DNA of 64,000 bases, from the NCBI GenBank assembly GCA_964016885.1, contig OZ024740.1, positions 72,044,001 through 72,108,000 on the forward strand. The letters run 5' to 3'. Shown here in pieces: positions 390 to 46,931 of this stretch. The DNA is from Eledone cirrhosa (Eukaryota). A program made the translations under genes and the position numbers. Under the pieces are notes generated by a model. The model was not told the origin of the DNA and searched no databases. It was given only the letters and a program-made list of their open reading frames with translations. Every line of letters starts with the position of its first letter. The first letter of the stretch is position 1.

Positions 390-568
390 TATATATATAT
401 ATATATATTTATTTATATATATATTTATTTATATATATATTTATTTATATATATATTTATTTATATATATATTTATTTATATATATATTTATTTATATAT
501 ATATTTATTTATATATATATTTATTTATATATATATTTATTTATATATATATATATTTATTAAAATAA

Positions 569-642
569 CAGATTAAAGTTTAAGCAAAGAATCGCTGCTT
601 TCACTCTTAACGGGATCTTCTGAAACTAACAAAGTCAATCTG
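569..642 (-). ncRNA. Type I hammerhead-like motif, variant core CAGAAGA (family R1)
   Basis: Reverse complement: cagattga-ctttgtt-agttt CAGAAGA tcccgttaagagt GAAA gca..tgc TT aaact-ttaatctg. Confidence 0.6.
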
Positions 643-1242
643 TAAACGCAGAATTGGATATTTCAAAAAACGTTGCAACTGAAGGAAGACAGGAAGACGA
701 TACTTTGGTTCGTGGTAACGTTCGCTGGCAAAGAACGGGGAAAAAACGAATAATACGTCATTAATAGGAGCGGTGAAAAACAATTACGCGCAAAGACAAA
801 ACCACGTTTATGGTATAAAAGAGGTTGTAGACTAATGTTCTCTTAGGTGGTGCATAGAGACGTTCTCTGGCAATGAACGAAAAAACGAAGATAATAAGTC
901 ATATGTGGAGCGTGGAGAACAATAGCACGCAAAGACAAAACCACGTAAATGGTATAGCAGAAATCGTAGACTAAAATTCTAACTAGGAGACCAAATGAAT
1001 CTCCGCTACAGAGTTAAGAACAAAGTAAATAAATACAATACAGAAATAATAGAAACAAATAAATACATACACGCAAACAGATACGTACATACACAAGCAT
1101 ACGCAAAACCTTACCATGGGTATACAAAACCACGCACATATAAATATGTGTGTGTGTGTGTGTATGCTTGTGTACAAATAAATAAATAATTATATAAACG
1201 TATATTATATAAACGTATATAATGATTATATAAACGTATATA

Positions 1243-2080
1243 AAAATGAAAGGCAGGTTGTACGATGCCTGCATACGAACAGCAATGCTGCATGGCAGTG
1301 AGACCTGGGCATTGTGTGCAGAGGATATACGCAGACTAGAGAGGAACGAAGCTTGCATGAACGGCAAAGCATAAACGAAGCTTGCATGAACGGCAAAGCA
1401 TAAACGAACTAAGGAAAAAATTAGAGATAAGAGGGATCAGATGTTGTTTACTCGAGAGAAGGCTACGTTGGTATGGACACGTGATGCGCATGAAAGTCGA
1501 TAGCTGTATAACAAAGTGCAGGGCAATAAAGATAGACGGTAGTCACGGAATAGGCAGACCTAGAAAAACCTGGGACAAGCTGATAAACTCCGACATTACA
1601 CACTTACACCTCTCCAAGACAATGTCACTGGACCAAGACCTTTGGCGGTACTCAGTAACAGAGAAGACCCGCCTTACCTAAATATATAGTAAAACCTACT
1701 CCAGCCAGTAGGCATCTCTAACAAAATACACCCCGTCCCACCACCACCACCCCCACCCCATCCACACCACCCCGTTCTATGTAAAGTTATGTTGGTGCCG
1801 CGCCATCGAGGCCGAAACAAATGAGATCGTGTAGGTGTCACGACAAAAAAACACACAGTCCACGCTGTAATGTGGCCGTGTAGGCAACACGGTAAAAACC
1901 TCCCAGACCCACACTGTAAATGTGGTTGGTGTTAGGAAGGGCATCCAACTGTAGAAAACCTGCCAGACAGTCCTATGCGAGCAAGATAATCACTCTTGCC
2001 TCAAGTGGGACTACCCCCGTCCAAACCCATGCAAGCGTGGAACACGGACGTTAAACGTTGATGATGATGATGATGATGAT
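1243..2080 (+). mobile_element. RTE LINE family A, 5'-truncated 3' fragment
   Basis: [10 protein letters not shown]...[11 protein letters not shown]...KTRLT, 3' UTR and (GAT)n tail; local deletion plus tandem duplication at ~1350-1410. Confidence 0.95.
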
Positions 2081-2180
2081 ATAAGTAAATAAATACGTAT
2101 ATAACAAGCGCACACGCATACCTACATATAAATACACGAATGTTCGGAGACGTAAGTCAACTAAAACAAGAAGTACACAA

Positions 2181-2397
2181 GCTAAGATCTTTCTTTCCCT
2201 TATTACGAAGCATTTTCCCCCTACACATAAATATAGTAAAATTTTTAATAGAAATACTATTAAAATTTCTTACTCTACGACTCCTAACCTTGCACATAAC
2301 ATCACAGCTTCAAATTTAGCTAAACTACCTAGCCGTAGGAACACGTGCAACCCTGTAGTTAGTACTAACTAATTGTAGGAATCGGGCTGATTGCCCC
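2181..2397 (+). pseudogene. Penelope-like element RT-to-GIY-YIG linker fragment
   Basis: Translates AKIFLSLITKHFPPTHKYSKIFNRNTIKISYSTTPNLAHNITASN..., then after a frameshift at ~2370 NCRNRADCP. This matches the KHFP/KIFNRNTxKxSYS/CNCR..CP linker I recognise from C-terminal-endonuclease PLEs. Not in the ORF track. Confidence 0.8.
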
Positions 2398-42510: not shown

Positions 42511-43127
42511 TGAACGACAAAGCATAAAGGAATTGAGAGAGAGACTGAGCATAAGAGGAATCAAATGCTGCGTGCAGGAGAGGCGGTTACGCTGGTATGG
42601 ACATGTGATGCGTATGAAGGATGACAGCTGCATAAAAAGGTGCAGAGCACTAGAAGTTGATGGAAACCGCGGAGTGGGGAGACCCAAGAAGACCTGGGAT
42701 GAGGTGATAAAAGCCGACCTTACCCAACTACACCTCTCAAAGTCAATGACACACGACCGTGACTTCTGGCGTCACGCAGTAATACAGGGTACCCGACCTC
42801 CCATGGGTACATGCTGAAGCACATAAACAATATGCCCCCCCCCCTCCCCCACCGCAAGGTGGTCGTGGAGGTGCCACGGCAAAAAAGCACCCAGCCCACA
42901 CTGTAAAGTGGACGTGTAGGCGCCACGAAAAAGCACCCAGCACTCACTGTAAATGAGGTTGGTGTTAGGAAGGGCATCCAGCTGTAGAAATCAAGCCAGA
43001 TCAGTTCCTGTATGAGCAAGGCATGGTCAGCCGACCAGACACTGCCCACAACAGGACAACCCGTCTAACCCATGCTAGCGTGGAAGAACGGACGTAAAAC
43101 GATGATGATGATGATGATGATGATGAT
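42511..43127 (+). mobile_element. RTE family B 3' fragment
   Basis: Matches 10590-11185. Confidence 0.95.
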
Positions 43128-46065
43128 ATAGATATATATATATATATATATATGTAGATATATATATATATATATATATATGTAGATATATATATATATA
43201 TATAGATATATATATATGTAGATATATATATATATATATAGATATGTAGATATATATATATATAGATATGTAGATATATATATATGTAGATATATATATA
43301 GATATGTAGATATATATATATATAGATATGTAGATATATATATATGTAGATATGTAGATATATATATATATAGATATGTAGATATATATATATATAGATA
43401 TGTAGATATATATATATATAGATATGTAGATATATATATATATAGATATGTAGATATATATATATAGATATGTAGATATATATATATATAGATATGTAGA
43501 TATATATATATATATATATATATATGTAGATATATATATATATGTAGATATATATATATATATATATGTAGATATATATATATATATATATATGTAGATA
43601 TATATATATATATATATATGTAGATATATATATATATATGTATATGTATGTATATGTATATGTATGTATATGTATATATATATATGTATATATATATATA
43701 TATGTATATATATATGTATATATATATATATATGTATATATATATGTATATATATATATATATGTATATATATATATATATATATGTATATATATATATA
43801 TATGTATATATATATATATATGTATATATATATGTATATATATATATATATATATATATATGTATATATATATATATATATATATATATATGTATATATA
43901 TATATATACATATATATATATATGTATATATATATATATACATATATATATATATGTATATATATATATATACATATATATATATATGTATATATATATA
44001 TATATATACATATATATATATGTATATATATATATATACATATATATATATATGTATATATATATATATACATATATATATATATGTATATATATATATA
44101 TACATATATATATATATGTATATGTATATATATATACATATATATATATATGTATATGTATATATATATACATATATATATGTATATGTATATGTATATG
44201 TATATGTATATGTATATATATATGTATATATATATGTATATATATATGTATGTATATATGTATATATATATGTATGTATATATATATATGTATGTATATA
44301 TATATATGTATGTATATATATATATGTATGTATATATATATATGTATATATATATATATATGTATATATATATGTATATATATATATATATATGTATATA
44401 TATATATATGTATATGTATATATATATGTATATATATATATATATGTATATATATATGTATATATATATATGTATATATATATGTATGTATATATGTATA
44501 TATATATGTATATATGTATATATATATGTATATATATATGTATATATATATGTATATATATATATATATATATATATATATACATGTATGTATATATATA
44601 TATATATACATGTATGTATATATATATGTATGTATATGTATGTATGTATATATATGTATGTATGTATGTATATATATATGTATGTATATATATGTATGTA
44701 TATGTATGTATGTATATATATATATATGTATGTATATATATATATATGTATGTATATATATATATATGTATGTATATATATGTATGTATATATATATGTA
44801 TGTATATATATATATATGTATGTATATATATATGTATGTATATATATATGTATGTATATATATATATATGTATGTATATATATATATATGTATGTATGTA
44901 TGTATGTATGTATATATGTATGTATGTATATATGTATGTATGTATGTATGTATATATATATGTATGTATGTATATATATATATATGTATGTATGTATATA
45001 TATATGTGTATGTATGTATATATATATATATGTGTATGTATGTATATATATATATATGTGTATGTATGTATATATATATATATGTGTATGTATGTATATA
45101 TATATATATGTGTATGTATGTATATATATATGTATATGTATGTATATATGTATGTATATATATATATATGTATATATATATATATGTATGTATATATATA
45201 TGTATGTATATATATATGTATGTATATATATATGTATGTATGTATATATGTGTGTGTGTGTGTGTGTGTGTGTGTATGTATGTATGTATGTATGTATGTA
45301 TGTATGTATGTATGTATGTGTATGTATGTATGTATGTATATGTATGTATGTATGTATATATATGTATGTATGTATATATATGTATGTATGTATATATATA
45401 TATATACGTATGTATATATATATACATATGTATGTGTATGTATGTATGTGTATGTATATATGTATGTATATATATGTGTATGTATGTATATGTATGTATA
45501 TATATATATATATATATGTATGTATATATATATATGTATGTATATGTATGTATATATATATATGTATGTATATGTATGTATATATATATATGTATGTATA
45601 TGTATGTATATATATATATGTATGTATATATATATATGTATGTATATGTATGTATATATATATGTATATGTATGTATATATATATATATATATATGTATG
45701 TATATATATATATGTATGTATATGTATGTATATATATATGTATATGTATATATATATATATATGTATGTATGTATATATATATATGTATGTATATGTATA
45801 TATATATATGTATGTATATGTATGTATATATATATGTATATGTATGTATATATATATATGTATGTATATGTATGTATATATATATATGTATGTATATGTA
45901 TGTATATATATATGTATATGTATGTATATATATATATGTATGTATATATATATATGTATGTATATATATATATGTATGTATATATATATATGTATGTATA
46001 TATATATATATATGTATATATATATATACGTATATATATATATATATATGTATATATACATATAC
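43128..46065. repeat. Compound microsatellite (TA)n/TAGA/TATG/TG
   Basis: Direct reading; motif composition changes along the array. Confidence 0.97.
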
Positions 46066-46415
46066 GTAGGCATCTCTAACAAAATACACCCCGTCCCGCC
46101 ACCACCCCGTTCTATGTAAAGTTATGTTGGTGCCGCGCCATTCAGGCCGAAACAAATGAGATCGTGTAGGTGTCACGACAAAAAAACACACAGTCCACGC
46201 TGTAATGTGGCCGTGTAGGCAACACGGTAAAAACCTCCCAGACCCACACTGTAAATGTGGTTGGTGTTAGGAAGGGCATCCAACTGTAGAAAACCTGCCA
46301 GACAGTCCTATGCGAGCGAGACAATCACTCTTGCCTCAAGTGGGACTACCCCCGTCCAAACCCATGCAAGCGTGGAACACGGACGTTAAACGTTGATGAT
46401 GATGATGATGATGAT
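46066..46415 (+). mobile_element. RTE family A, 3' UTR only
   Basis: Matches 37836-38204. Confidence 0.94.
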
Positions 46416-46519
46416 ATATATATATATATTTATATATATAAATATATATTTATATATATAAATATATATTTATATATATATATATATATTTATATATTTA
46501 TATGTATATTTATATATAA

Positions 46520-46931
46520 GTATTTAGAATTTTAGCCTACGACTTCTGCTATACCATTTACGCGGTTTTGTCTTTGCGTGCTATTGTTCTCCACGCTCCA
46601 CATATGACTTATTATCTTCGTTTTTTCGTTCATTGCCAGAGAACGTCTCTATGCACCACCTAAGAGAACATTAGTCTACGACCTTTTTTACCATAAACGT
46701 GGTTCTGTCTTTGCGTGTAATTGTTTTTCACCGCTCCTATTAATGACGTATTATATTCGTTTTTCCCCGTTCCTTGCCAGCGAACGTTTCCACGAACCAA
46801 AGTATCATCTTCCTGTCTTCCTCCGGTTGCAACGTTTTTTGAAATATCCAGTTCTGCGTTTACAGATTGACTTTGTTAGTTTCAGAAGATCCCGTTAAGG
46901 GTGAAAGCAGCGATTCTTTGCTTAAACTTTA
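46520..46931 (+). mobile_element. Family R1 PLE-like fragment with HHR-like motif (46863-46931), 3' end clipped
   Basis: Reverse complement of ~574-982; same CAGAAGA...GAAA fold. Confidence 0.8.

Follow-up and report, generated by a model that had tools for sequence, protein, structure and literature searches.

How did a set of short sequences, many of them shaped like hammerhead ribozymes, come to lie within one field of (TA)n repeats? The question is raised by a 64,000-nt stretch of Eledone cirrhosa DNA (assembly GCA_964016885.1, contig OZ024740.1, positions 72,044,001 to 72,108,000 of the forward strand; hereafter the window), in which pieces of LINEs (long interspersed nuclear elements), together with short non-LINE islands, are embedded in degenerate (TA)n from position 390 to about 46,530. 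Our answer, which we hold with high confidence, is that the islands are the 5'-truncated 3' ends of six families of Penelope-like elements (PLEs; families A, C, D, E, F, and H) and of three tandem repeats without an open reading frame (ORF; families B, G, and I), that each family carries a hammerhead-shaped motif, and that all of them were likely inserted into (TA)n by a PLE reverse transcriptase (RT)-endonuclease. The coordinates are collected in Table 1.

The original prediction, made from the window alone, had placed hammerheads at ten sites. All ten are hammerhead-shaped at those places and on those strands, and their quality varies. A relaxed descriptor, composed after the sites had been seen, found four motifs with a canonical CUGANGA core and stems I and II (at 7499, 13719, 21263, and 26783) in 5,168 nt of non-LINE islands versus none in each of 200 dinucleotide shuffles, and none in 21,436 nt of LINE islands or in the remaining 16,811 nt. 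When U4A or U3-A8 cores were also allowed, the islands contained six motifs, compared to at most two in the shuffles. The motifs are thus real and above chance in the non-LINE islands; their self-cleavage is predicted from sequence. The same four sites and the copies of family I show the full type I core (C3 U4 G5 A6 N7 G8 A9 / G12 A13 A14 A15.1 / U16.1 H17) and helices I to III. The remaining sites depart from it in different ways. The three copies of family A have a CAGAAGA (U4A) core, combined with loss of a stem II pair in 569-642; the motif at 26343 carries G8A, as do 5 of 50 G copies; 19102-19130, in family D, is the 3' half of a hammerhead only; and 22981-23035, in family F, has a canonical core and a stem I of just 2 bp. 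The relaxed descriptor accordingly missed 569-642, D, F, and 26343, and we class A, H, and the 26343 copy, in which the canonical core is not preserved, as hammerhead-like variants. The H motif (22769-22802, minus strand) was absent from the original list.

The earlier claim of a hammerhead fold in nearly all short non-LINE islands was too broad. Three islands (5377-5433, 8868-8957, and 12802-12958) are stubs of the ribozyme-bearing families A, C, and I that lack the motif themselves, and the island at 14220-14437 is of low complexity. The predicted cut sites lie about 21 to 215 nt from the 3' ends, close to the 20 to 220 nt originally given, but the end at 46931 adjoins another repeat and not TA.

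The ten sites fall into seven families, in agreement with the earlier count of at least seven different sequences: A (569, 12537, and 46863), B (7499), C (13719), D (19102), E (21263), F (22981), and G (26343 and 26783). Searches of the same genome gave 741 to 2,981 first-look candidates per query (851 to 2,981 for the seven first families), 40 of which were scored for each, and these figures are not copy numbers; top copies were mostly 93 to 100% identical. Five of the seven, A, C, D, E, and F, were linked to PLE ORFs, D via a sister subfamily, whereas B and G are ORF-less tandem repeats. Of the two families added here, H was linked directly to a PLE ORF and I is an ORF-less tandem repeat.

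In family A, the frame upstream contains DKT, the linker CNCRNRADC, and a GIY-YIG-type end (loci L214/L224/L226), and the translation of 2181-2369 in the window is 95% identical to this ORF, which contradicts the claim that none of the islands is explained by the window's own ORFs. From C, a 1.3-kb untranslated region leads upstream into a similar frame (L218 and L220); the ORF link of C, and of a relative 92% identical to it, comes from L220/L218 and L259. Family E forms the terminus of a tandem unit of 5,800 nt whose open frame measures 758 aa (L261), and intact copies of E have a 6-bp stem I that is lost in the window copy. The window copy of D is truncated in the ribozyme; an 89%-identical subfamily with the whole motif leads to a Hydra-type frame. 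The only longer copy found of the window's own D subfamily (L167, near 673, minus strand) has C3 together with A8 at the truncation point. We rejected the idea that D and E are fixed-length, 140-nt elements resembling short interspersed nuclear elements (SINEs) and beginning at the ribozyme, since longer copies run into PLE ORFs. A CUGANGA core directly upstream of D was likewise discarded; it had just two genome matches, both products of inversion junctions.

The Hydra clade of PLEs is defined by RWK, DKT, a CxCX5C linker, the absence of CCHH, and the presence of CxxC/CxH (PMC8557442). Frames of 627 to 758 aa in A, C, D, and E, those of D from sister-subfamily fragments only, carry an RDD catalytic motif and a VY..Y[IV]G endonuclease motif as read by eye. 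DKT is present in A (SDKTGN), E (SDKTKN), and the C relative (SDKTNN), the D fragments not covering this region. The frames also show the linkers CNCRNRADC (A), CNCRDRSKC (C), CNCPDRSTC (D relative), and CNCLNKEAC (E), no CCHH, and CDLC/CNLC and CKH/CMH/CRH as CxxC/CxH around the endonuclease end. At the place of RWK, the E frame, the C relative, and L226 have RWR, a conservative change that makes the agreement inexact. By these features, A, C, D, and E are predicted to be Hydra-clade PLEs. They share further traits with that clade, namely, ORFs of about 710 to 745 aa, a type I hammerhead near the 3' end, inverted truncated copies, a tail, and (TA)n targets, which Craig et al. 2021 give for all but one of 27 Hydra families, Hydra-1_Obim of Octopus bimaculoides being among the 26 (PMC8557442). 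Published Hydra hammerheads have a U.U at the stem II base (PMC8557442), and the cores of A and E share this feature. In contrast to the published Hydra elements, units are longer here (5.8 kb in E versus less than 3 kb), tails measure 68 to 92 nt rather than 30 to 40 nt, and cores do not all start with CUGA (CAGA in A and UUGA..A in the D relatives); moreover, four Hydra-clade families are present versus one listed for Octopus. The proteins of A, C, D, and E are 38 to 50% identical, so that these elements are not unrelated, as had been proposed. The proposal that several PLE and retrozyme families share the TA niche and leave mostly 3' stubs is supported by the multicopy families, the TA-flanked ends, the links to PLE ORFs in five of seven, and the ORF-less tandem repeats of the other two; four of the seven, however, are related, putative Hydra-clade elements.

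Family F has a 1,217-aa open frame between two pseudo-long terminal repeats (pseudo-LTRs) 4,137 nt apart (L213), with DKS, a CX4CX2C linker (CTNRKCIIC), and a CCHH endonuclease. Ahead of the RT, this ORF (L213:985-4635) carries an Asn/His-rich low-complexity insert of about 170 aa. The H protein contains DKG, CSLSNCP, CDKC..YIG, and two His, and the GIY-YIG frames in which H and the D relatives end run in the same sense as the ribozyme. F and H are predicted to be canonical PLEs with a C-terminal endonuclease (EN+), similar to Neptune/Nematis-type PLEs in their C-terminal CCHH-type GIY-YIG domain, cysteine linker, and minimal hammerhead with a 9.1 extra base, and different from them in the DKS and Asn-rich insert of F and the family-wide U4C+A6U core of H (PMC4209133). 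Diverged PLE proteins and B-like ribozyme variants were seen in L017, L023, L080, L093, L104, L219, L239, and L298. Families beyond the nine of this window exist.

Do the motifs behave like ribozymes under selection? Among 64 copies of C, helix II covaries across subfamilies, from G-C to A-U and from U-A to C-G, and core position 7 shows all four letters; the search pattern for C demanded the core, which leaves position 7 and the helices as informative. Variant cores are consistent within families: position 4 is A in 59 of the 60 family A copies, all 32 copies of H read CCGUUGA (U4C+A6U), and the D relatives have U3 in 38 of 41 and A8 in 41 of 41. It might therefore be argued that many motifs are dead or decaying ribozymes in young families, their association with TA being real and self-cleavage irrelevant, at a minimum, in A with its U4A core, in H with U4C+A6U, and in F with its 2-bp stem I. 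We take this seriously and rate it only somewhat below an even chance. Changes at A6, including A6C, reduce hammerhead activity (PMC3088659), minimal PLE hammerheads cleave poorly in vitro (PMC4209133), and genomic 5' ends avoid the cut site (see below). On the other hand, A keeps its core otherwise intact, along with helices I to III, even in a copy of only 84% identity, U4C and U3-A8 are tolerated natural variants (PMC3088659; U3-A8 also in PMC4209133), and C, B, and G covary. Decay would concern catalysis only and is compatible with insertion of the islands by a PLE enzyme. Our literature search surfaced no U4C+A6U core and no natural U4A hammerhead, figure-level data of PMC3088659 and preprint supplements being outside its reach. 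If these variants cleave, they would broaden ribozyme search descriptors.

The evidence for insertion comes from the ends of the copies, which we mapped in 323 loci, deduplicated by context only. TA flanked 594 of 655 family ends (A 75/84, C 90/100, D 158/162, and E 104/111), compared with 665 of 8,719 positions drawn at random from these loci. The long ends of F were TA-flanked in only 12 of 32 cases, because F has a further end that the fixed position used did not capture. Each family has two fixed 3' ends, 42 to 106 nt apart, hereafter the long and the short end. In back-to-back insertions (n = 174), one arm nearly always had the long and the other the short end (167 long+short, 5 long+long, and 2 short+short). 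The ORF-less families followed the same rule, with 15 of 17 pairs in G and 6 of 6 in B (21/23 together), and 8 of 8 in I by inspection (20 loci; two inverted loci without a second fixed end left out). E loci retrieved with an end-free query showed both ends about equally often. The window itself holds six such pairs (at 5377, 8868, 12227, 21246, and 26122, and an H/F chimera at 22577-23238). At the other side of the copies, only 3 of 145 by-catch arms had a 5' end lying 3 nt or less from the predicted cut (A 0/38, C 0/30, D 3/46, F 0/29, and H 0/2), and of the 46 D arms, 39 start in the ribozyme, most of them at the 3' arm of stem II.

Because long and short ends are paired in this way, in the retrozyme-like families as well, we propose two-ended PLE priming in (TA)n. 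The GIY-YIG endonuclease would cut both strands, and both DNA ends would prime reverse transcription of an uncleaved RNA longer than one unit, each end from its own one of two internal start sites. Both cDNAs would stall early, often in ribozyme hairpins, and then be joined, giving stubs and inverted pairs; lying 20 to 220 nt from the start sites, the ribozyme would survive truncation. B, G, and I may be non-autonomous passengers that rely on these enzymes, with circular or multimeric RNA as their probable source. A precedent is PAc, the purified Poseidon PLE of Anolis, which cuts and extends both strands of AT-rich DNA. Its two internal RT start sites correspond to the genomic tail, and its template is RNA that has not been cleaved, ribozyme cleavage being dispensable and the hammerhead needing the protein (Frangieh et al. 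2024, PMC11167929). PAc, however, belongs to a different clade, and the accessible part of that paper holds neither a pairing of arms with start sites nor retrozyme RNA. It is tempting to go further and suggest that each end uses a different start site, that RNAs of two families sometimes take part in one event (H/F), that retrozymes evolved the same start sites, and that U4A in A and U4C+A6U in H are working variants assisted by protein; we offer this extended version tentatively and do not consider it the probable one as a whole.

Long+short pairs could instead stem from a single priming event, after which one cDNA folds back or switches template, or from later rearrangement. Junctions often contain short fold-back palindromes, and 106 of 109 direct junctions join arms of the same family, as one RNA template predicts. 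A simple fold-back copy, however, would stop at or before the same 3' end and not at a second fixed site, and the longer arm may be on either strand. Of the three remaining junctions, two are mixed and one (L026) is an artefact, discounted because of a SINE inside the D reference. In one mixed junction, the chimera at 22577-23238, the long arm of H is joined directly to the short arm of F, which cannot come from one RNA, although this is a single case plus one E/C junction. We consider single priming or rearrangement unlikely, if less so than the alternatives that follow. The chimeric arms meet via a 12-nt palindrome.

The ORF-less families raise the question of their own origin. G consists of 466-nt head-to-tail units, about 20 of them in L217 (G000:C1:375634000-375643999), B of 485-nt tandem units seen as dimers, and I of 520- to 529-nt tandem units with a canonical hammerhead and a longest stop-free stretch of 83 codons; in the 60 loci of B and G, no frame of at least 200 aa was attributable to either. 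A half-hammerhead hairpin at 12836-12859 on the plus strand was rejected for I, whose fixed ends and real ribozyme sit on the other strand. B, G, and I resemble the non-LTR retrozymes of metazoans (Cervera and de la Pena 2020, PMC7229834; Li et al. 2026, 10.64898/2026.07.22.740005) in that they are dispersed alongside PLEs and have one type I hammerhead per unit, a palindromic stem III, and a low GC content (0.35-0.36 in G and B). They differ in that their units exceed the reported 170 to 400 nt, and the accessible texts of these two papers mention neither strict targeting of TA nor a set of two fixed ends nor inverted pairs of the long+short kind. Nor did our literature search, which did not reach bioRxiv supplements, surface a long+short rule for retrozymes. 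We regard B, G, and I as putative non-LTR retrozymes. The contig depth of G (run X1) was high, and was dismissed as a sign of expression since the depth of F equals it.

A satellite route has been raised by Li et al. 2026 (10.64898/2026.07.22.740005), according to which B, G, and I would be satellites that derive from PLE termini and spread by local DNA amplification (unequal crossover) and not by reverse transcription of their own RNA. In L217, 18 measured G units, some with G8A, form three- and then four-unit higher-order repeats, which shows that the long G arrays were extended later by local expansion at the DNA level. New dispersed insertions with fixed ends, however, are not made by local amplification: B and G arrays are spread across many chromosomes at 97 to 99% identity, with two fixed TA-abutting ends and the pairing of ends described above in all three families. 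As the origin of these families, the satellite route is very improbable. Weakest of all, and largely refuted, is the view that the motifs are chance folds in AT-rich, self-complementary sequence: a strict descriptor passed only 26783-26827 among the ten sites, the Rfam matches, among the 150 of 157 listed, included just two to a hammerhead, both in G copies and below the gathering score of 52 (HH9; 38.6 bits, E 3.1e-6, and 35.7 bits, E 2.7e-5), and minimum-energy folds at most sites differ from the hammerhead, but the observed count was reached in 0 of 200 shuffles, each motif occupies the position usual for PLEs, close to the 3' end, in an independent family, and B, C, D, and G show covariation. 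Rfam matches to mir-297 and the like were TA-repeat artefacts.

Several points weigh against our reading of the islands as truncated PLE and retrozyme insertions. The clade calls rest on motifs read by eye, and reference Hydra proteins (Hydra-1_Obim) were also compared by eye. Pfam found neither RT nor GIY-YIG in the five PLE frames tested, and a PDB sequence search gave weak RT matches only (E 0.049 and 0.15). The E protein has 1,347 homologues of about 700 aa, one carrying PF01541 (GIY-YIG), and the 120 listed are without names. Compensatory pairs in B, D, and G amount to one or two copies each, which are small counts, and compensatory change was not found in copy alignments of A, E, F, and H, families that are young. 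The loci used for end mapping were chosen by likeness to the window queries, so that the end class of one arm was often preset, that of its partner not. Finally, a comparison of tails found no helper PLE for B or G, only a weak likeness of A to C and of D to E (I left out).

Much of this has precedents. Published work already describes Hydra PLEs with hammerheads in (TA)n, truncated single motifs, inverted insertions with a tail at one end, and retrozymes in the role of candidate passengers of PLEs, and most PLE hammerheads are single and stem from truncated PLEs (Cervera and de la Pena 2014, PMC4209133). The diversity of elements in the window is the expected product of known Hydra-type PLE biology. 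The rule of long and short ends common to PLEs and retrozymes provides genomic support for the long-proposed mobilization of retrozymes by PLEs, and the footprint ties the two RT start sites known in vitro to the inverted structures typical of PLEs. Young, apparently intact ORFs make both ideas directly testable.

Table 1. The TA field and the islands within it; clade assignments and hammerheads are predictions from sequence.
Feature	Position	Strand	Remarks
Degenerate (TA)n field	390..46530	unstranded	Insertion target; 200-N gap at ~18277-18476
Family A (Hydra-clade PLE) insertion	558..2397	-	Minus arm 558-2179 with short 3' end and U4A motif 569-642, split by RTE LINE 1241-2080; inverted piece of own ORF 2180-2397(+)
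Family A micro-insertion	5377..5433	unstranded	Minus-strand short end and last tail bases of plus strand; ribozyme core absent
Family B stub (485-nt ORF-less tandem unit)	7418..7592	-	Canonical-core hammerhead 7499-7583; long stem II, palindromic stem III
Family C micro-insertion	8868..8957	unstranded	Minus-strand long-end tail joined to plus-strand short end; no ribozyme
Family A	12227..12621	+	Short end and U4A motif 12537-12610 in plus arm 12266-12621; long end in inverted tail piece 12227-12265
Family I stub (520-529-nt ORF-less tandem unit)	12802..12958	-	Canonical hammerhead outside the truncated copy; not in the original list
Family C (second Hydra-clade PLE) 3' end, long tail	13641..13916	+	Canonical-core hammerhead 13719-13784
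Family D (fourth Hydra-clade PLE, via 89%-identical subfamily) 3' end	19088..19224	+	Truncated within ribozyme; whole motif in relatives has U3-A8 core
Family E (third Hydra-clade PLE)	21246..21360	-	Short end and canonical-core hammerhead 21263-21309 in minus arm; long end in inverted tail fused to this arm
Family H (PLE with DKG, CCHH-type GIY-YIG) 3' end, long end	22577..22874	-	Minimal hammerhead-like motif 22769-22802, core CCGUUGA; not in the original list
Family F pseudo-LTR (4.14-kb Neptune/Nematis-type PLE)	22879..23238	+	Minimal hammerhead 22981-23035, short end; back-to-back with H arm, no TA between
Family G (466-nt ORF-less tandem unit) back-to-back insertion	26122..27122	unstranded	Minus arm: short end, motif 26343-26387 (G8A); plus arm: long end, intact motif 26783-26827
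Family A 3' region	46524..46931	+	U4A motif 46863-46931; end removed by another repeat

The (TA)n niche is common to LINEs too. Several subfamilies of RTE-type LINEs, which have (GAT)n tails and an ORF that includes a PHD finger, end beside TA at 2419-4266, 5880-7014, 9236-11190, 19242-20312, 32664-40540, 42512-43131, and 46050-46413, and TA flanked 17 of 34 RTE-type LINE 3' ends in the fetched loci. Two long LINE frames in the TA field match RVT_1 in Pfam, one of them also with endonuclease and PHD domains. CR1/L2-like LINE fragments occupy 15868-17483, 27178-29010, and 29637-32160, with 27178-29010 and 30340-32146 being 99.2% identical and inverted about a TA tract. At 43132-46049, the TA field switches to variant repeats of the (TATG/TACA) type; periodic TTTA variants in many other tracts suggest slippage or higher-order expansion. 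The first 388 positions hold a fragment of a different repeat family with RT-like coding, rearranged copies of which lie beside TA in several loci. Outside the field, a 33-bp unit is repeated 46 times at 55606-57124, with 97% matches, and is open in several frames.

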